From Flavobacteriales bacterium (GTDB taxonomy: Bacteria > Bacteroidota > Bacteroidia > Flavobacteriales > UBA7430), in NCBI GenBank assembly GCA_022425195.1, contig JAKMFX010000010.1, positions 1,814 through 65,813 on the forward strand: a DNA stretch of 64,000 nucleotides, given 5' to 3'. Made by a program: the position numbers and the translations under genes. The notes under the pieces are model-generated. The model saw only the letters and a program-made list of their open reading frames with translations. It was not told the origin of the DNA and ran no database searches. This document shows positions 32,384 to 41,947 of the stretch, piece by piece. Each line of letters begins with the position of its first letter. Position 1 is the stretch's first letter.

Positions 32384-32836
32384 ATGAGTTTAAAAGCACA
32401 GATCATGCCCGCAATGAAAGAGGCTATGAAAGCAAAAGATAAGGTGTCCTTAGAAACACTCAGAGCCATTAAAGCCGAGTTGTTAAAAGCGGATACCGCT
32501 TCAGGAGCATCAGGAGAGATGAGCGATGCTGAAGAGATTAAGTTACTCCAGAAGATGCAAAAGCAGCGTAAAGATGCTGCAGCTATTTACGTAGAACAAG
32601 GAAGAGATGATTTGGCGGCTGATGAAACGGCTCAGATGAAAGTTTTAGCGAAGTTTCTTCCTCAGCAGATGAGCTCCAAAGACTTGGAAGAAGCTGTGAC
32701 AGCTATTCTTCAAAAGGTGGGCGCAAACGGTCCTGCTGACATGGGAAAGGCCATGGGAGTTGCTTCTAAAGAGCTTGCTGGTAAAGCTGAGGGTAGGGCC
32801 ATAGCTGATATGGTTAGGTCACTTTTGAATCAGTAA
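32384..32836 (+). CDS. GatB/YqeY domain protein
   Basis: MKEAMKAKD...LRAIK, GRDDLA, DMGKAMG. Confidence 0.92.
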   Translation: MSLKAQIMPAMKEAMKAKDKVSLETLRAIKAELLKADTASGASGEMSDAEEIKLLQKMQKQRKDAAAIYVEQGRDDLAADETAQMKVLAKFLPQQMSSKDLEEAVTAILQKVGANGPADMGKAMGVASKELAGKAEGRAIADMVRSLLNQ

Positions 32837-32953
32837 TTTAAACAGGATTACCTCGTTTTAAGTCGCTTTAAAAGGCACATCTAGGTGGATTCACCTATAC
32901 AATGAGTAACATCACCTATTGACTTATCACCCATATGAGACCTACATTTGTCT

Positions 32954-33022
32954 CATATAATAGTTTTAGTTAATAGTAATATTTTTGGTAAAGGGCCCAT
33001 ACTTTTAGTGTGGGCCTTTTTT
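32954..33022 (+). ncRNA. Candidate sRNA of about 70 nt between yqeY and groEL
   Basis: TTG-N21-TACATTTG promoter (32919-32950), no ORF, own terminator GGCCCATAC-TTTTA-GTGTGGGCC-T6. Confidence 0.5.
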
Positions 33023-33050
33023 GATTTTAAATATATTTTTAAGCCCAAAT

Positions 33051-33087
33051 AAAAAAGGCCCTGTCTATGAAACAGGGCCTTTTTTTA
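33051..33087 (-). terminator. Bidirectional terminator after groEL
   Basis: A6-GGCCCTGT-CTATGAA-ACAGGGCC-T7. Confidence 0.9.
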
Positions 33088-33097
33088 TCGGTAAGAT

Positions 33098-35024
<1,927 letters not shown>

Positions 35025-35072
35025 GTTACGTCAAATTAAATAGTTTATACAATGAATTTTGAATGCATTTAC

Positions 35073-35087
35073 TCAGAAATTGTGCCA
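35073..35087 (-). promoter_or_regulatory. Putative sigma54-like -24/-12 promoter of groES
   Basis: Minus strand TGGCAC-AATTT-CTGA: perfect -24 box, degenerate -12 (GA in place of GC). Confidence 0.5.
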
Positions 35088-35124
35088 CTAAGGGTTTTCT
35101 GTCAATTTGTCCTAAAAATAGGAT

Positions 35125-35159
35125 AAAAAAAAATGCCAAACGGGTCAGCTTGGCATTTT
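35125..35159 (-). terminator. Terminator after secG (overlaps a putative operator box)
   Basis: Minus strand AAAATGCCAA-GCTGACCCGT-TTGGCA followed by T9. Confidence 0.65.
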
Positions 35160-35176
35160 GATGAATTTTATAGCGT

Positions 35177-35491
35177 CTATTCCGTCACCTCTGGAGTTTC
35201 AGTAGGAACGAAGTCTTCTGCGCTGTCTTCTACTTGTTCAATAATGTTTGATTGACTTTCGATATCGCTTCGGTCAATGGCAAAGTTAGAGGCAAGCGAT
35301 AAGGCAACTAAGGCCAGTGCAAGCGTCCAGGTACTTTTTTCCAAAAAGTCAGAAGTTTTTTTGACTCCCATAAATTGATTTCCTTCACCAAATGTAGAAG
35401 AGAGCCCTCCACCTTTTGGATTTTGAACTAAGATGACCAGTAGCAATAATGCGCAAGTAATCAGTATTAAAATAGAAAACAATCCGTACAT
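35177..35491 (-). CDS. secG: Preprotein translocase subunit SecG
   Basis: ILVQNPKGGGLS, LEKSTW, two TM segments. Confidence 0.93.
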   Translation of the reverse strand: MYGLFSILILITCALLLLVILVQNPKGGGLSSTFGEGNQFMGVKKTSDFLEKSTWTLALALVALSLASNFAIDRSDIESQSNIIEQVEDSAEDFVPTETPEVTE

Positions 35492-35493
35492 AT

Positions 35494-36174
35494 CTATGAG
35501 TTTATTTGTTTAATGGCTTTAATTTGGTTTGCAAATAAACTACTTTTTTGTGGATATTTCAAACTTAAAATTTCATAGGCGGTTATGGCCTTCTCCAAGT
35601 GCCCTTGTTCCAGATATACTTTAGCCAGTGTTTCCGTCATGAGGGTATTATTTTCCTGTAAACTTTCTTTTGCCGTTTGATCTGGAGAAAAGAATTCTTT
35701 TTTTGGACGTTCCTTCTTTTTAGACTCGGCAATAAAGTCAACAATCTTGTTTGTTTTTTCCAGAGGCTTTAGCGCTTTGTTCTCCTCTGTTTTTTCTCTG
35801 TCGATAGGTTTAAAACGGGCAAGCTTGAGCCACTCATTAAAGGAGTGTTTCTCCTCTTGATCGAACTCAAGAGGTTTACCTAGTTCGAGATCTACCTCTA
35901 TCTCTGAAGAGGATAAAACGGTTTTTTTCTCACTTTGAAATGTTTCTTGAGTAATGTATTCAAAGAGTAAGGTCCTATTTCCCGATATCGCTGCCGTCAT
36001 TTTCAATTCCCTATTGTACGCTTCGCTTTCTGAATCTTTTAATGCCTTCAGTCGCAATTTGTGTAATGACGAGCAATAGGGATGCGTTACACAGAGTTCA
36101 TCTAACTCAGAAAGGTGTTCTTTTCGAATGTTTTCGGGTTTCCGAATTAGTGCTATGAATTGTGCGCTTTGCAT
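35494..36174 (-). CDS. Conserved hypothetical protein with C-terminal TPR
   Basis: TETLAKVYLEQG...AYEILSLKYPQKS; usual position between lptE and secG. Confidence 0.8.
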   Translation of the reverse strand: MQSAQFIALIRKPENIRKEHLSELDELCVTHPYCSSLHKLRLKALKDSESEAYNRELKMTAAISGNRTLLFEYITQETFQSEKKTVLSSSEIEVDLELGKPLEFDQEEKHSFNEWLKLARFKPIDREKTEENKALKPLEKTNKIVDFIAESKKKERPKKEFFSPDQTAKESLQENNTLMTETLAKVYLEQGHLEKAITAYEILSLKYPQKSSLFANQIKAIKQINS

Positions 36175-36175
36175 A

Positions 36176-36673
36176 CTACCAATTTACAACAGCTTTATTA
36201 AATAAGTCTTCAATGAGCTCAGAAATTATTTCTTCCAGCAAACTTTCTTCTATTTGAGAGAGATTCAAGTTGCTGTCAAAATCTGCATAGCGACTAAAAG
36301 TTTGTTCGTATGAATTATCAGGCTCTATTTGATTGGTAAACCGGACAAAAACTTTCACGCTCAGCCGATTTTGATTTGCTTGATCATTAGAGCTAATGCT
36401 GATAGGTGTAATTTTATAGTCGCTTATATATCCTTCAAATTGCAGGTCCCCATTGCTGCGAATTAAGTTTAAGTCGGTTTGTTGGATGAGGTATTCTTGA
36501 AGGTCATTCGTAAACTGTTGGCTTAATGTCGGCTGGACTAAAGTAGCTTGATTTTGAAAATAAGTAACGGAAGTTGTTTTTGCATCAGGGTGGATGTCAG
36601 CTCCCGTAAAAGTGTAAACACTACAGCTACATACCAAGGCGATGCACGCGATTAAAATCTGGAATCTGGACAT
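36176..36673 (-). CDS. lptE: LptE family lipoprotein
   Basis: Lipobox-like CSCSVYTFTG, FEGYISDY, ends in NW. Start moved to MSRFQ. Confidence 0.8.
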   Translation of the reverse strand: MSRFQILIACIALVCSCSVYTFTGADIHPDAKTTSVTYFQNQATLVQPTLSQQFTNDLQEYLIQQTDLNLIRSNGDLQFEGYISDYKITPISISSNDQANQNRLSVKVFVRFTNQIEPDNSYEQTFSRYADFDSNLNLSQIEESLLEEIISELIEDLFNKAVVNW

Positions 36674-36674
36674 A

Positions 36675-37904
36675 TTATAAGTCGTATTGTTTAATTTTCC
36701 GGTAAAGGGTTCGTTCAGAAATACCCAGTTCTGCTGCCGCCCCTTTTCTTTTACCACGATGTTTTTCAAGAGCGTTTTTTATCATTTCAATTTCTTTATC
36801 CTGAAGGGATAAGGACTCTTGAGGTTTTATTTCTTGGGCTTGAATGGTACGAGTTTGTTCAGTCTGTTCTGAAGATGGAGAGGGTAGAAGAATGGCTTGA
36901 TTTTGGTTGACGTCGTCGTATTCTGAGTAAATTTCGTCAATCCGTTTTTCGTTTTCTTCATCGAAATTTAGCTCCCCTTTCGTGAGATTTTGCGTGAGTT
37001 TTTTCAAATCACTAATGTCTTTCTTCATGTCGAAGAGCACCTTGTAAAGTATTTCTCTCTCGGTATAGTCGTTTGATGCAGTCTTCCCATCATCGTAGAG
37101 AACGGGTAGTGTTTTTTCTTCGTTGTTAGGAAGGTAGTTTTTTAGCGTAATCGCGTCAATCATCCGACGCTCTTCAACAACGGAAAGTTGCTCGGTAACG
37201 TTTCTGAGTTGCCTGATGTTTCCCGGCCATCGGTATGCAGAAATCAATTTGACAGCATCTTCATCAAGACGGACAGAAGGCATGTGGTATTTTTCGGCAA
37301 AGTCCATGGCAAATTTCCGGAAGATCAAATGGATGTCATCCTTACGATCTCTGAGGGGCGGTAGATTCACTTGAACGGTATTCAACCGATAAAATAAATC
37401 CTCTCTAAACTGATTTTTTTGAATGGCTGTCTGCATGTTTACGTTCGTAGCAGCAACGATTCGAACTTCTGTTTTTTGAGTCTTTGATGAACCTACCTTA
37501 ATAAACTCTCCAGTTTCTAGGACTCGCAACAAGCGCACTTGCGTCGCTAAAGGGAGTTCTCCCACCTCATCCAAGAAGATGGTGCCACCATCTGCAACTT
37601 CAAAATAACCTTTTCTGCTGGCTGTCGCGCCTGTGAAAGAGCCTTTTTCATGACCAAAAAGTTCACTGTCAATCGTTCCTTCAGGAATGGCTCCACAGTT
37701 CACTGCAATGTAGGGTCCGTGTTTGCGAGCCGACATTTGGTGGATGATTTTTGGGATGACTTCTTTACCGGTTCCACTTTCTCCTGAGACCATCACAGAA
37801 ATGTCTGTAGGAGCTACGCGAATCGCTTTGGATATAGCACGGTCTAGTTCAGGTGAAGAACCTATAATTCCAAATCGTTGTTTTATATCTTGAGCTGATG
37901 TCAT
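36675..37904 (-). CDS. Sigma54-dependent Fis-family enhancer-binding protein lacking an N-terminal sensor domain
   Basis: [43 protein letters not shown]-terminal HTH. Confidence 0.93.
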
Positions 37905-37932
37905 CTTATCGATTCACTTTTTTTCATTTGAA

Positions 37933-39384
37933 TTATACTTCCACGCTTTCGCCAATCAAGGTGGCGGAATTACAACTCGTAATTTTTACTTGAACGTAGT
38001 CACCTGCTTTGTAGTGTTTTTTTGGAAATACCGCCACCGAATTGTGTGTAGTTCTTCCAAACAAGTGTTCGTCAGATTTTTTCGAGACCCCTTCCACTAA
38101 AACTTTGAAAGTCTTCCCAATCTTAGATTGGTTGTGTTCCATCGAATGCGCTCTTTGCTTTTCGATAATTTCGGTTAAACGCCTCGATTTAACCTCCTCT
38201 GGAACATCGTCTTCGAATTGCCGAGCTGCTTTTGTGTTCGGACGTTCCGAATACTTGAACATGAAGCCATAGTCGAATTTCACATAATCCATAAGGCTTA
38301 AGGTGTCCTTGTGTTCGTCTTCTGTTTCTGAACAGAAGCTCGAAATGATGTCTTGCGATATGGCGCAGCCAGGGATGATTTTTTTGATGGAATCAATACG
38401 TTGCATATACCACTCTCTGGTGTAGCCACGGTTCATCATATCAAGGATTCTCGTATTTCCAGATTGTACCGGCAGGTGGATGTAGTCGCAAATGTTTTCA
38501 TATTTCGCCATGGTCTCCAGAACTTGATCTGTCATGTCTTGAGGGTGAGATGTCGAAAATCGAATTCTCATTTCAGGACTCACCAGAGCTACTTTTTCGA
38601 GTAGTTGTGCGAAATTCACTGAGCTGGCTTGTTGTATGCTTGAGAGTTTGTTAAAATCCATTTTCGCTCCTCCACCATACCAAAGGTAGGAGTCTACGTT
38701 TTGTCCCAGTAGTGTGACTTCTTTATATCCTTTCTCATGCAGTTCTAGAACTTCATTCACGATGCTCTCAGCATCTCTACTTCGCTCTCTACCCCTTGTG
38801 AAAGGTACCACGCAGAAGGTGCACATATTGTCACAACCTCGCATGATGGATACGAATGCAGTAACACCATTACTGTTAAGTCTTACCGGGCTAATGTCTG
38901 CGTAAGTTTCTTCTTTTGAAAGTTGAACATTGACCGCTTTTTGACCTTGATCCACGGTGTTGATCAAGTTGGGTAAATCTCGATAGGCATCTGGACCAAC
39001 AACAATATCAACGAGCTTTTCTTCTTCCAAAAACTTTGATTTCAGGCGTTCAGCCATGCAGCCAAGCACACCTACAGTCATGTCTTTTTTCTTGTCTTTC
39101 AGCCTTTGGAAAGTTCTGAGACGTTTTCGAACAGTCTGTTCTGCTTTCTCCCTAATGGAACAAGTATTGACGAAAATAACATCTGCCTCGTCGACATTTC
39201 GGGTGGTATTAAAACCGTGCTCGGAAAGAATGGATGCAACAATTTCACTGTCAGAAAAATTCATCTGACAGCCATAGCTTTCAATGTAAAGCTTTCGTTC
39301 TCCTGCCTTGGGCGTTTCAATAACAAGTGCTTCACCTTGTTTTCCTTCGTCAATAACTTTGTTACCTGTATGGTATTGTTCCAT
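37933..39384 (-). CDS. miaB: tRNA i6A37 methylthiotransferase MiaB
   Basis: GCQMN, CSIRE, radical SAM motif [12 protein letters not shown] domain. Confidence 0.97.
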
Positions 39385-39407
39385 CTATAATTCGTCTTTG
39401 TTGATCG

Positions 39408-39444
39408 CAAAATTACAAAATGTAATAATTCTGACAAAGTGTCA
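39408..39444 (-). promoter_or_regulatory. miaB-operon promoter (TTTG-N19-TAATTTTG) overlapped by the palindrome TGACA-AAG-TGTCA
   Basis: -7 element at 39408-39415, -33 at 39435-39438, palindrome at 39432-39444. Confidence 0.7.
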
Positions 39445-39613
39445 TGTAAGATTAGCGAGATTAAAGTTTTAAAGAGCTCTTGAGGAGGATTTTTTTATTT
39501 CAAATATTCTTTTAATTTATTAAAAGAGCATGCCGAACCATTAGATAATAGTCCTACAATTAGGAAGATTGATAAAACTTATCATAATTTTACAGCAAAT
39601 CTGAGAACTAAAT

Positions 39614-41947
39614 ATGGCAAAGAATTTAGTAATTGTTGAGTCGCCAGCAAAGGCAAAAACCATTGAAGGGTTTCTAGGGAAAGACTTTAAGGTGTTGTCC
39701 AGTTTTGGCCACATTAGAGATTTATCACACAAAGACATGGGTGTAGACATCCCTGGAGGCTTCATTCCAAATTATGAGGTTTCTACGGATAAAAAAGATA
39801 CGGTAAAAGCCCTAAAGAAGGAGGCTAAGACTGCAGAGGTGGTATGGCTGGCTACTGATGAAGACCGAGAAGGGGAAGCCATTGCTTGGCATTTGGCGGA
39901 AACCTTAAATTTAAAGAATAAGGAAACCAAACGTATTGTTTTTCATGAGATTACCAAAACGGCAATCACTAAGGCTGTAGATAACCCTCGTGAGATTGAT
40001 TACAACTTGGTCAACGCCCAACAGGCACGTAGAGTCCTCGACAGACTTGTTGGTTTCGAGTTGTCACCTGTTTTGTGGAGAAAAGTAAAACAAGGCTTAT
40101 CTGCAGGACGAGTGCAGTCTGTTGCAGTTCGGTTGTTGGTGGAGCGAGAACGCGAGATTAACAACTTCAGCTCCAACGTATACTATAAAATAGTCGCACA
40201 ATTTATCAATGAAAAAGGGCAGTCTTTCCGAGCTGAAGTTCCTTCCCGATTGTCGAGTTTAGAAGAAGCACAAAACTTTTTGAAACAGTGTGTTGATGCA
40301 GAGTTTCGCATTGATCAATTGGATAAAAAGTCCGCGACCAAAAGTCCGGCAGCTCCCTTTACAACCTCTACACTACAGCAAGAAGCTGCTCGAAAGTTAG
40401 GGTTCTCTGTGTCGCAGACGATGACGGTTGCTCAGCGTTTGTATGAAGCGGGGAAGATTACCTACATGAGGACAGATTCTGTGAATCTTTCTAACGATGC
40501 AATGTCGGCAATCAAGCAAGAGATTGAGAATGAGTACGGAGCATCGTACTCCAACCCCAGAAGTTATTCTACCAAATCTAAAGGGGCTCAAGAAGCTCAC
40601 GAGGCGATTCGACCTACTTACATGCACGAACGACAAGTTAGTGATGATTCTGGGCAGCAAAGATTGTATGACTTGATATGGAAGCGTGCGATAGCATCGC
40701 AAATGTCCAACGCCAAATTAGAGCGAACGACTGTTGCTATTGATCATTCCAATCACGAAAAGAATTTTGTGGCAAAAGGAGAAGTGATCGTGTTTGATGG
40801 GTTTCTTAAAGTATACCTAGAAGGTACAGATGACGAAGGAGAGGAAGATCAAGAGGGCATGTTGCCCAAACTTGAGGTTGGTGAGCTAGTGACCTACAAA
40901 AAAATGAGTTCGAGAGAACGATTTACCAAAGCACCGGCTCGATTTACTGAAGCCAGCCTGGTAAAGAAGTTAGAGGAATTGGGTATTGGAAGACCTTCCA
41001 CATATGCCCCTACCATCTCAACCGTTCAGCGCAGAGGCTATGTCGAAAAAGGTGAAGATGAAGGAACACTTCGCTCATACCATTATGTGGAATTACTAGA
41101 TTCTGTGGTTAAAACGGATCTGCTTGAAGAGAAAGCCGGCTCGAAAAAAGGTAAGCTTTGTCCCACAGACATTGGGATGGTCGTGAATGATTTTTTAGTG
41201 GCTAATTTTGATTCTATCCTGGACTACCATTTTACGGCCAATGTTGAGGCCGAGTTTGATGAGATTGCATCAGGAGATAAGACATGGAATGCCATGCTTC
41301 AAAATTTTTACGGAGATTTTCATGCCAAGGTGGAAGATGTAAAAGAGAACTCTGAGCGAGCTGTGGGTCAACGACTATTAGGAGTAGACCCCAAAACCGG
41401 GCTCAATCTATATGTTCGAATAGGACGCTACGGTCCCATGGCGCAATTGGGTGAGGGGACTGAAGAAGAAAAGCCTAAGTTCGCAAGTTTAAGAAGAGGG
41501 CAATCTATTGAGTCAATCTCACTAGAGGAAGCCATAGATTTATTCAAGCTTCCTAGGCAGGTAGGTCAATTCGAGGATAAAGTCGTGACGGTAGCCATAG
41601 GAAGGTTTGGCCCCTACGTTAGGCACGATGGTAAATTCGTTTCACTGGGAGAGTATGACCCTATGACGATTGAGTTGGATGCTTGTATAGAACTCGTTCA
41701 GGCCAAGCGTAAGTCAGATGCTGAAAAACACATTCATACCTTTGATGATGAAGCGCCTGCAATACAAGTATTGCACGGGAGATGGGGTCCTTACATTAAA
41801 ATGGAAAAGAAGAACTATAAAATCCCTAAAGATGTAGAAGCTGAAGGATTAGATAGAGCTCAATGTATACATATTATTGAAAATCAACCCAAGAAAACAC
41901 GAGGCAGAGCCAAAGCGAAGCCAAAGTCAAAATCAAAGAAAAAATAG
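39614..41947 (+). CDS. topA: DNA topoisomerase I
   Basis: IVESPAKAKTI, DEDREGE, SAGRVQS, ITYMRTD, C-terminal GRYGP/GRFGP repeats, Lys-rich tail. Confidence 0.98.
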   Translation: MAKNLVIVESPAKAKTIEGFLGKDFKVLSSFGHIRDLSHKDMGVDIPGGFIPNYEVSTDKKDTVKALKKEAKTAEVVWLATDEDREGEAIAWHLAETLNLKNKETKRIVFHEITKTAITKAVDNPREIDYNLVNAQQARRVLDRLVGFELSPVLWRKVKQGLSAGRVQSVAVRLLVEREREINNFSSNVYYKIVAQFINEKGQSFRAEVPSRLSSLEEAQNFLKQCVDAEFRIDQLDKKSATKSPAAPFTTSTLQQEAARKLGFSVSQTMTVAQRLYEAGKITYMRTDSVNLSNDAMSAIKQEIENEYGASYSNPRSYSTKSKGAQEAHEAIRPTYMHERQVSDDSGQQRLYDLIWKRAIASQMSNAKLERTTVAIDHSNHEKNFVAKGEVIVFDGFLKVYLEGTDDEGEEDQEGMLPKLEVGELVTYKKMSSRERFTKAPARFTEASLVKKLEELGIGRPSTYAPTISTVQRRGYVEKGEDEGTLRSYHYVELLDSVVKTDLLEEKAGSKKGKLCPTDIGMVVNDFLVANFDSILDYHFTANVEAEFDEIASGDKTWNAMLQNFYGDFHAKVEDVKENSERAVGQRLLGVDPKTGLNLYVRIGRYGPMAQLGEGTEEEKPKFASLRRGQSIESISLEEAIDLFKLPRQVGQFEDKVVTVAIGRFGPYVRHDGKFVSLGEYDPMTIELDACIELVQAKRKSDAEKHIHTFDDEAPAIQVLHGRWGPYIKMEKKNYKIPKDVEAEGLDRAQCIHIIENQPKKTRGRAKAKPKSKSKKK

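Follow-up and report, generated by a model that had tools for sequence, protein, structure and literature searches.

A sigma-54 promoter is silent without an activator, and the enhancer-binding proteins (EBPs) that activate such promoters usually bind 80–150 nt upstream. PspF of Escherichia coli is a sensor-less EBP, an AAA+ domain plus an HTH, that represses its own gene; as a rule, NtrC and PspF both repress their own synthesis from sites overlying a sigma-70 promoter. Bacteroidota lack both textbook heat-shock regulators, and sigma-54 promoters have been mapped or predicted at their chaperone genes with the activator left unnamed. In Flavobacterium psychrophilum, starts were mapped behind the sigma-54 motif SM4 at groS-groL, dnaK, grpE-dnaJ, lon, htpG and clpB (Guerin et al. 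2021, PMC9723704), and a PSSM survey (PLoS One 2025, PMC12316311) predicted sigma-54 promoters at groEL, groES, grpE, dnaJ, dnaK and ibpA across Bacteroidota, with the chaperone enrichment highest in Flavobacteriia, then Bacteroidia and Cytophagia. An earlier note on the present DNA had taken sigma-54 control of groESL to be undescribed in Flavobacteriales, which is out of date in view of these two papers; such control is not new. In its accessible sections, PMC9723704 assigns no activator, suggesting that three EBPs might split the regulon, and describes no upstream box; those of PMC12316311 deal with promoters only and do not name an activator, an enhancer site or a phasing. Our literature search found no publication in which either the activator or the DNA site it uses is named.

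In the small marine Bacteroidota genome analyzed here, the minus strand carries all genes of the locus, in the order miaB–EBP1–lptE–(TPR)–secG, followed by groES–groEL. The first gene of the operon, miaB (37933–39384), encodes a tRNA methylthiotransferase (Pfam UPF0004, Radical_SAM and TRAM). It is followed by the gene for a putative sensor-less sigma-54 activator, referred to in the following as EBP1 (36675–37904; assigned from Pfam, an alignment of 31 orthologs, AlphaFold2 and NCBIfam), four genes upstream of groES. The listed lptE ORF (36176–36769; Pfam LptE) overlaps the end of EBP1; translation probably begins at a later ATG, at ≈36673. Next come a 226-aa protein of no clear family (35494–36174), with only a faint TPR_6 match, and secG (35177–35491; Pfam SecG), the last gene of the operon; the 226-aa protein was not found between the EBP and groES in two small genomes of the order, of 0.34 and 0.63 Mb. 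The chaperonin genes are groES (34746–35024; Pfam Cpn10) and groEL (33098–34735; Pfam Cpn60_TCP1). F. psychrophilum has the same order, EBP–lptE–x–secG–groES–groEL, from locus tags THC0290_0733 to _0728.

Pfam matched EBP1 to Sigma54_activat (PF00158, residues 13–179, E 2.8e-68), AAA_lid_14 and HTH_8 (369–407), and found no domain before residue 13. The protein can be divided into an AAA+ domain (13–257), a mostly disordered tether of ≈105 residues that holds a single conserved helix (280–308), and a Fis-type HTH (367–406); the AlphaFold2 model had a mean pLDDT of 76.6. Among the 31 orthologs, the Walker A motif GESGTGKE at G41–K47 is invariant except at position 45. The GAFTGA loop of EBPs contacts sigma-54. 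In EBP1 this loop reads GSFTGA (88–93), with G88, F90, T91 and G92 invariant; the ortholog consensus has A at position 89, unlike this genome. The genome also encodes RpoN (Sigma54_DBD, E 6.1e-52, a 479-aa frame on contig C41). By domain, loop and rpoN, EBP1 is thus classified as a presumptive bacterial enhancer-binding protein, predicted to drive ATP-dependent opening of a closed sigma-54 complex. It was rejected as a PspF equivalog, scoring 281.4 bits on TIGR02974, below the cut-off of 443.55, and no match to PspA (PF04012) was found in the 99%-complete genome. A check proposed in the earlier note gave rpoN without hrcA or rpoH: there was no match to HrcA (PF01628) in the genome, and two 287-aa sigma factors scored 161.4 and 158.7 bits as RpoH, below the cut-off of 323.1, both being best matched as RpoD.

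Upstream of groES is a candidate sigma-54 promoter, TGGCACAATTTCTGA (35073–35087, minus strand), with the −24 GG at 35086/35085, the −12 TG at 35075/35074 and a predicted start near 35060. The element, TGGCAC-N5-CTGA, has GG and TG 10 nt apart, and A replaces C at −12. The 152-nt secG–groES spacer contained no TAnnTTTG, TAnnTTGY, CIRCE-like site or sigmaA box, in agreement with the earlier note, which had reported groES to lack CIRCE and TAnnTTTG. Within the 64-kb window (the whole stretch of DNA analyzed), the best match to the CIRCE consensus had four mismatches and lay outside the spacer, and the relaxed CIRCE core was not found anywhere in the genome. The promoter element is well conserved: [TC]GGCAY-N5-nTGA was kept at groES in 16 of 17 family loci, most loci of the order (27 examined) and of the class (28) had a TGGCA-type −24/−12 element, and 65 of these 72 loci passed the groES promoter score.

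In F. psychrophilum, the groS start was mapped behind TTGGCATAATTTCTGA, with a sigma-54 motif posterior of 1 (PMC9723704). The sequence before that start, TGGCATAATTTCTGA, is the groES 15-mer of the present genome with T at the sixth position, so that the two species have like 15-mers at groES (TGGCAYAATTTCTGA, PMC9723704). That TGGCAC…CTGA is not a working promoter, with groESL served by transcripts reading through from the secG operon or by an unrecognized sigmaA-type promoter, is extremely unlikely. Its −12 sequence is CTGA rather than the textbook TTGC; however, TGA stands at −12 in six of the eight mapped F. psychrophilum sigma-54 promoters examined (PMC9723704). An RNA-library contig (run X1) extends from groES to 35121, past the predicted start, but contigs cannot show starts, and secG is followed by a putative intrinsic terminator, a hairpin of 12 pairs (35130–35159), with no TAnnTTTG in the spacer beyond it. 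Transcription of groES–groEL from a sigma-54 promoter is a prediction in this genome; a start is mapped in F. psychrophilum only.

Two boxes lie upstream of this promoter, both on the minus strand and each with one mismatch to TGNCANNNTGNCA. The proximal box, GGACAAATTGACA (35100–35112), is centered 20.5 nt, or two helical turns, from the −24 GG, and its 12-nt gap to the promoter element is kept in most of the 17 family loci. The distal box, TGCCAAGCTGACC (35143–35155), is centered 63.5 nt (six turns) from the GG and lies inside the secG hairpin; throughout the class, hairpins with TGTCA/TGACA arms are a recurrent feature of the region before groES. Together with the TGGCAC −24 box and the palindrome over the miaB promoter discussed below, these are the features that the earlier note had listed, and all were recovered at the same positions. 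One observation that speaks against the EBP1 model is that a site centered ≈45 nt upstream of the start is much nearer than usual, too near for the DNA between to form a loop.

In the 200 nt preceding groES, exact TGnCA-N3-TGnCA boxes were found in 5 of 17 family, 13 of 27 order and 16 of 28 class loci, compared to at most 0.16 sequences expected in shuffles. The 34 exact boxes fell at approximately 20, 32, 41, 52, 63, 73, 84 and 94 nt from the GG, that is, at whole helical turns, two to nine, from the −24 element (Rayleigh R 0.889 for a period of 10.5, mean phase −0.5 nt, p ≈ 2e-12, a value inflated by the non-independence of related genomes). At grpE, 26 clear promoters, each from a different family, were compared; in 23 of them, a box with at most one mismatch was centered 18.5–21.5 nt from the GG, a spacing of two helical turns. 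The groES and grpE boxes therefore share a helix face with the sigma-54 promoter.

Elsewhere in this genome, sigma-54-like promoters were also found before dnaK, lon and grpE. A strict composite of box, N11-13 and promoter occurred at six places in 1.77 Mb, three of them intergenic, at groES, lon and grpE; the loose composite, box-N11-13-TGG[CAT]A, gave 70 matches versus 74, 65 and 66 with control gaps, and thus no excess. Of the five genes at which the earlier note had suggested looking for the motifs, lon and grpE have both promoter and box; dnaK has a good sigma-54 promoter, but the 45 nt nearest to it hold no canonical box; clpB is without a sigma-54 promoter; and htpG is missing from the genome. 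F. psychrophilum differs in the last two respects; at groS, grpE and htpG it has TGTCA/TGACA 12–13 nt ahead of the −24 element, and at clpB TGTCC, with no box at the 12-nt gap at lon and dnaK.

A full-length EBP1 ortholog was present once per genome in all 31 order and all 31 class genomes. Orthologs in the order were 58–100% identical, with paralogs at no more than 48%, and the distance from EBP1 to groES was under 4.5 kb in 21 of 30 order and 16 of 30 class genomes. The present genome encodes a second EBP (receiver plus AAA+, no DNA-binding domain) on contig C20, adjoining ppx/gppA. EBPs without a DNA-binding domain, such as FlgR and CtcC, act from solution, and this second protein might activate the chaperone promoters here while EBP1 serves something else. 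We consider this very unlikely, since the second EBP has no linkage to chaperone genes and would leave the boxes without a reader. Furthermore, at E ≤ 1e-40, nine of the 31 order genomes, the 0.34-Mb and 0.63-Mb ones among them, had EBP1 as their sole EBP, and eight of these nine have a TGGCA-type element at groES, the exception being locus L070 of genome G017.

The 0.34-Mb and 0.63-Mb genomes keep both rpoN and the order miaB–EBP1–…–secG–groES–groEL. In the 0.34-Mb genome, there are three copies of the box, one upstream of groES and one upstream of grpE, both perfect, and one in coding DNA. A Pfam scan of 184 of its 219 small ORFs (≤345 aa) detected no HTH regulator domain besides RpoD, making EBP1 the only protein with a recognized HTH regulator domain found there. 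It is still conceivable, if rather unlikely, that another, unrecognized DNA-binding protein reads the boxes and that EBP1 acts from solution or from other sites: the scan of that genome covered ORFs of up to 345 aa, 184 out of 219, of which 28 had no Pfam match, and a site two turns from −24 is atypical for an enhancer. Against this stand the retention of perfect groES and grpE boxes beside a single recognized regulator, the presence of the box on EBP1's own promoter across the order, a recognition helix that is, like the box, nearly invariant among the orthologs, and the two-to-nine-turn phasing, which fits an activator facing the polymerase. EBP1 and the 13-bp palindrome very probably constitute the groESL switch.

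The box on EBP1's own promoter is a perfect 13-bp palindrome, TGACActtTGTCA (TGnCA-N3-TGnCA; 39432–39444, minus strand), which we propose as an EBP1 operator from its sequence and conservation. As TGACACTTTGTCA, read from 39444 to 39432, it covers the −33 element of a sigmaA-type promoter (39408–39438, minus strand) for the miaB–EBP–lptE–(TPR)–secG operon. This promoter consists of a −33 TTTG (39438–39435), assigned by the −33 TTG consensus, a 19-nt spacer and a −7 box, TAATTTTG (39415–39408). The −7 box matches the Bacteroidota consensus TAnnTTTG (PMC9723704). In the 64-kb window, TGNCANNNTGNCA has a single occurrence where 1.13 would be expected, and it turned up at least once in 67 of 100 shuffles; since this count is not improbable, the weight rests on position and conservation. 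An exact TG[AT]CA-N3-TG[AT]CA was present at the miaB promoter in 12 of 15 family loci; of the 25 order loci that could be evaluated, 22 carry an exact TGnCA-N3-TGnCA there. F. psychrophilum, too, has TGACA-N3-TGTCA over its miaB promoter, on the mapped sigmaA start (supplementary table of PMC9723704).

With the palindrome lying over the −33 element, it is probable that EBP1 restrains its own production through it. The earlier note's claim that the EBP represses its own operon is thus plausible, the basis being the position of a conserved box centered on −33. The palindrome might instead not be repressive, reflecting a strong −33 context or an EBP1 site for another promoter, which we regard as somewhat unlikely. 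The −33 TTG lies inside the second half-site, so that part of the conservation would come from the promoter itself, but no sigmaA element explains the left half-site TGnCA, which 22 of the 25 evaluable loci of the order retain between variable flanks. Plasma induces both miaB and the EBP gene in F. psychrophilum (log2 2.14 and 1.62), unlike a tight shut-off, and in the 0.34-Mb genome the palindrome is missing from the 73 nt preceding miaB, so autoregulation does not hold everywhere; NtrC and PspF, on the other hand, do autorepress from sites placed in this way.

Taken together, it is likely that EBP1 is the sigma-54 activator of groESL, acting from the TGnCA-N3-TGnCA boxes, and that it also represses its own operon. 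The conservation, in 45 families, of the promoter, the box and the EBP, the box phasing and the genomes with EBP1 alone give strong comparative support to the earlier note's proposal that the EBP drives groESL via sigma-54 from nearby boxes, in which binding and activation are inferred. In this model, a dimer of the Fis-type HTH would bind the palindrome, with the chaperone sites (groES, grpE and lon) on the helical face of the −24 GG, two to nine turns upstream, and the AAA+ ring, tethered by ≈105 residues, would remodel the closed sigma-54 complex. On the sigmaA promoter of miaB–EBP1–lptE–(TPR)–secG, EBP1 would limit its own synthesis. As for the input signal, our guess is that DnaK or GroEL senses the load of unfolded protein and titrates the activator accordingly. 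For EBPs, it would be an unusual arrangement to activate from only two turns upstream.

With a single, universally conserved gene and a strictly phased 13-bp site as candidates, the identity of the activator can be tested directly in Flavobacterium johnsoniae or Bacteroides. A bolder version, which we find possible but doubtful, is that proteostasis throughout the class Bacteroidia has EBP1 as its master regulator, replacing sigma-32 and HrcA, with phased sites down to two turns from the −24 element, a flexible tether of ≈105 residues that reaches the polymerase instead of a DNA loop, and free chaperones restraining the protein through its helix 280–308. The need to express groESL and grpE could be what maintains sigma-54 in the tiny genomes of flavobacterial endosymbionts. 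RpoN retention in flavobacterial insect endosymbionts has reportedly been called unusual and tied to nitrogen; a class-wide role of EBP1, if true, would explain it.

Among known activators, PspF is close to EBP1: both share the same architecture, with no N-terminal regulatory domain and a site over their own promoter, and the PspF model gave the only full-length NCBIfam alignment (residues 13–407 on positions 1–336). EBP1 differs in its score, 281 bits against 443.55, in the absence of PspA, in its regulon, in its ≈105-residue tether and in sites down to two turns from the −24 element. Its AAA+ domain matched the solved domains of NtrC, NtrC1, FleQ and ZraR (residues 13–250, E 1e-70 to 1e-57), with which it shares a GAFTGA-type loop, Walker A and a Fis-type HTH; unlike these, it has no receiver or sensor domain, and its loop in this genome is GSFTGA. 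With the sigma-32 (RpoH) and HrcA/CIRCE systems, the targets in common are groESL, dnaK, grpE and lon. The EBP1 circuit would stand where other bacteria use one of these, in a genome that, unlike them, has neither regulator nor CIRCE, and its control would need an ATP-driven activator.

The five genes that precede groES follow one another on the minus strand with gaps of no more than 28 nt: miaB (39384..37933), the gene for EBP1 (37904..36675), which is a sensor-less enhancer-binding protein (EBP) of the sigma-54 activator type, lptE (36769..36176), a gene for a 226-aa protein whose only domain match, to TPR, is faint (36174..35494) and secG (35491..35177). The run is closed by a 12-pair terminator hairpin (35159..35130, minus strand), beyond which groES (35024..34746) and groEL (34735..33098) lie on the same strand. 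Directly after groEL, a GC-rich hairpin, GGCCCTGT...ACAGGGCC (33055-33090), is bordered by T runs on each strand and is probably a two-way terminator common to groEL and the converging gene.

The earlier note had placed a perfect palindrome on the promoter of the miaB operon, and this was confirmed. The palindrome, TGACActtTGTCA, is found upstream of miaB at 39444..39432 (minus strand), and 19 nt beyond its TTTG stands TAATTTTG, which fits the -7 box of Bacteroidota, TAnnTTTG. We take TTG to be the Bacteroidota -33 element; because the TTTG stands 19 nt before the -7 box, the palindrome lies over the -33 element. The -7 consensus comes from the portion of PMC9723704 available to us, which also has TGACAtctTGTCA at the mapped miaB start of Flavobacterium psychrophilum. 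By count the palindrome is unremarkable, since TGNCANNNTGNCA occurs once in the window against 1.13 expected and at least once in 67 of 100 shuffles. In 12 of 15 miaB loci of the family, the exact form TG[AT]CA-N3-TG[AT]CA occupied this position, with TGCCATTTTGTCA in one further locus; two family loci, in which the MiaB alignment begins at residue 29, were beyond judging. At the order level, 28 miaB loci were collected. Two had no MiaB match and one was cut; of the 25 promoters that could be evaluated, 22 carried an exact TGnCA-N3-TGnCA. Elsewhere in the window, TGGTATAAAACTTGCA occurs 59 nt before the gene for a 549-aa protein (1062-2783) with Cleaved_Adhesin, thioredoxin-like and type IX secretion sorting domains.

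At groES, two similar boxes (TGnCA-N3-TGnCA, the proposed EBP1 site) and a TGGCAC -24 element had been described, with neither CIRCE nor TAnnTTTG, and a sequence search of the region agreed. The sigma-54 promoter-like element TGGCACAATTTCTGA lies at 35087..35073 on the minus strand. Two boxes, each with one mismatch, precede it on that strand: a proximal one at 35112..35100, centred 20.5 nt or two helical turns from the GG of the -24 element, and a distal one at 35155..35143, centred 63.5 nt or six turns from it. Neither TAnnTTTG nor CIRCE was present in the secG–groES spacer. A sigma-70-type scan of 34900-35300, whose model does not cover Bacteroidota promoters, returned no promoter-like site, and Rfam gave no family at gathering score over 32800-39800. 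Contigs from four RNA libraries, out of 23 runs available, show neither starts nor levels; they covered groEL, groES and secG; over 33000-37000 they left 35680-36885 without cover, which says nothing on levels. Their ends upstream of groES fell at 35002, 35022, 35043 and 35121, although contigs cannot place transcription starts.

The secG terminator (35130-35159), whose arms here read TGCCA/TGGCA, contains the distal box. Terminators upstream of groES across the class have TGTCA and TGACA arms (loci L171, L176, L178, L183, L189, L192, L194 and L196), and the terminator and the site therefore overlap. It seems that a single hairpin serves both as a terminator and as a predicted protein-binding site.

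The groES promoter is widely conserved. The pattern [TC]GGCAY-N5-nTGA preceded groES in 16 of 17 family genomes, the exception being L018, and a TGGCA-type -24/-12 element was found there in most of 27 further genomes of the order (16 families) and most of 28 genomes of the class (28 further families). By our own promoter score, 65 of the 72 loci had a clear groES promoter; L018, L020, L021, L070, L182, L191 and L197 failed. At -12 stands TGA or TGC, as in mapped flavobacterial promoters.

Exact boxes within 200 nt upstream of groES were found in 5/17 family, 13/27 order and 16/28 class loci, while dinucleotide shuffles gave at most 0.16 sequences with an exact box. A clear grpE promoter was present in 26 of 29 class loci, and in 23 of these 26 a box (up to one mismatch allowed) was centred 18.5–21.5 nt from the GG, against a background of 0.004 per position. 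The box is genuine and ancient. In all, 34 exact boxes were collected upstream of groES, from 33 loci, and their distances from box centre to GG centre clustered at about 20, 32, 41, 52, 63, 73, 84 and 94 nt. With a period of 10.5, the Rayleigh R for the 34 boxes was 0.889 (p ~2e-12, mean phase -0.5 nt; the loci are not independent owing to kinship, and three entries nearly duplicate those of close relatives), compared with only 0.35 at a period of 9.5 and 0.56 at 11.5. The distance varies among lineages and the phase stays. Sites at whole turns, from two to nine, suit an activator that needs to face the polymerase. Such a spread of sites does not suit a repressor that blocks polymerase.

EBP1 is the probable activator. 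One full-length ortholog was found in each of 31 order genomes (58–100% identity, against a maximum of 48%, confined to the AAA+ part, for paralogs) and in each of 31 class genomes (E<=1e-90). In 21/30 order and 16/30 class genomes, groES and the EBP1 gene share a contig and are no more than 4.5 kb apart. In 9 of the 31 order genomes EBP1 is the sole EBP at E<=1e-40, and two of these nine genomes measure only 0.34 and 0.63 Mb; both have rpoN and keep the order miaB-EBP1-(lptE)-secG-groES-groEL. The 0.34-Mb genome (22.8% GC) contains three TGnCA-N3-TGnCA sites in all: the first precedes the groES promoter by 23 nt, the second precedes a sigma-54-like element at grpE by 11 nt, and the third is in coding DNA. 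A Pfam scan was run on 184 of its 219 ORFs of up to 345 aa; longer ORFs, 28 ORFs of the ribosomal-protein cluster, seven across segment boundaries, groES and grpE were left out. No HTH regulator other than RpoD was found among the 184 ORFs, 28 of which had no Pfam match; the other nucleic-acid proteins in that set were HU, RuvABC, NusA, NusG, NusB, GreA, a DksA-type zinc finger protein and DUF3276. By elimination, therefore, EBP1 is the only recognised candidate reader of the box there, and any sigma-54 promoter of that genome must depend on it too. Retention of RpoN in one such endosymbiont was termed 'unusual' and tied to nitrogen in the part of PMC3971599 available; chaperone expression accounts for it more simply.

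The genome of the window (G000; 1.77 Mb, 39.7% GC, 48 contigs, 99% complete) has rpoN. The expected absence of hrcA and rpoH was upheld, as hrcA had no match in this 99% complete assembly and the two 287-aa sigma factors, encoded outside the window (L198:1453-2316 on contig C48 and L199:829-1692 on C9), both scored best as RpoD, reaching only 161 and 159 bits with the RpoH model against a cut-off of 323. The genome thus has two RpoD-like factors, neither of them RpoH, along with two of ECF size; for F. psychrophilum, the accessible part of PMC9723704 lists only one primary sigma factor. True EBPs number two: EBP1 and a 387-aa protein, also encoded outside the window (L002:1258-2421, contig C20), with receiver, AAA+ and lid domains and no DNA-binding domain. 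Its gene adjoins ppx/gppA, and paralogs of similar size (388–405-aa frames) occur in many order genomes.

A genome-wide search for TGGCA-N6-TTG that tolerated one mismatch yielded 1145 matches, 51 of them intergenic and facing a gene; 16 of these 51, chosen by eye, were annotated. Mismatch-free sites stood upstream of dnaK (TGGCACAAAGATTGTC), lon (TGGCATAACCCTTGCC) and grpE (TGGCAAACAATTTGCT), and also of ileS and two TonB-dependent receptor genes. The receptor sites, TGGCACGAATATTGA and TGGCATGGAAATTGG (L030, C47:160500-163100, and L032, C37:79600-83650), are without a box and may be under the control of the second EBP. The strict textbook form TGGCAC-N5-TTGC was absent from the genome, where the local -12 forms are TTGA/CTGA, or TTGC after TGGCA[AT]. 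The strict composite TG[AT]CA-N11-13-TGG[CAT]A-N6-[TC]TG occurred six times, and its three intergenic instances were those of groES, lon and grpE. A loose composite, box-N11-13-TGG[CAT]A, was rejected as a regulon marker, as its 70 matches showed no enrichment over the 74, 65 and 66 obtained with control gaps. Among the other chaperone genes, grpE and lon have box and promoter and dnaK has the promoter, with no canonical box within 45 nt, whereas clpB (L042, C38:27762-30911) has no sigma-54 promoter and carries in its place TACCTTTG, a sigmaA -7 box, and the search of the genome for htpG found none. Exact TG[AT]CA-N3-TG[AT]CA sites are rare (3 against 9.4 expected) while the chaperone boxes have one mismatch, and the regulon is therefore not defined by exact sites. 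The sole other intergenic exact site is TGACATCATGACA (contig C10, 52564-52576), 14 nt before a 251-aa ORF preceding rplS.

In all 31 aligned EBP1 orthologs the AAA+ domain begins at about residue 12, so the absence of a sensor domain is conserved, as are the Walker A motif and the GSFTGA loop. The HTH is nearly invariant, and so is the box, which leaves no covariation between the two to follow. An AlphaFold2 model (mean pLDDT 76.6) was confident for the AAA+ domain (1–257) and the HTH (367–406), with values below 50 for residues 264–280 and 327–365 and of 58–67 for a conserved helix at 280–308.

Most likely, EBP1 dimers would bind the box and the AAA+ ring would assemble beside the closed sigma-54 complex, with the long tether predicted to bring the AAA+ domains to sigma-54 even from two turns, too close for a DNA loop. 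The same site, where it covers the -33 element of the sigmaA promoter of the EBP1 operon, would provide negative feedback, as sites over their own promoters do for NtrC and PspF. Titration by chaperones is our guess for the input signal.

PspF gave the sole full-length NCBIfam alignment of EBP1, with 281 bits, which is below the cut-off of 443.55; PspA, the phage-shock partner of PspF, is not encoded in the genome, and solved structural relatives match the AAA+ domain only. The earlier note knew of no experimental description of such control of groESL in Flavobacteriales, which is out of date: sigma-54 control of groESL is already in print, through the mapping of F. psychrophilum transcription starts by Guerin et al. 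(2021; PMC9723704) and a 2025 PSSM survey (PMC12316311), which found sigma-54 promoters enriched at groEL, groES, grpE, dnaJ, dnaK and ibpA in Bacteroidota, chaperone enrichment being highest in Flavobacteriia, both as far as the available portions go. No publication that names the activator or the upstream site of these chaperone promoters came up in a search that covered subscription journals thinly; in the part of PMC9723704 available, three EBPs are noted and none is assigned. The same part of PMC9723704 places the sigma-54 motif SM4 at groS-groL, lon, dnaK, grpE-dnaJ, htpG, skp and clpB; the clpB element was lost in the genome of the window. The groS row there, ...aaaTGTCAgttttaaatccTTGGCATAATTTCTGAAAAG..., gives a 15-mer identical to that of the window except for T instead of C at position six, and by its locus tags F. 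psychrophilum has the gene order of the window: EBP (_0733), lptE (_0732), secG (_0730) and groS (_0729).
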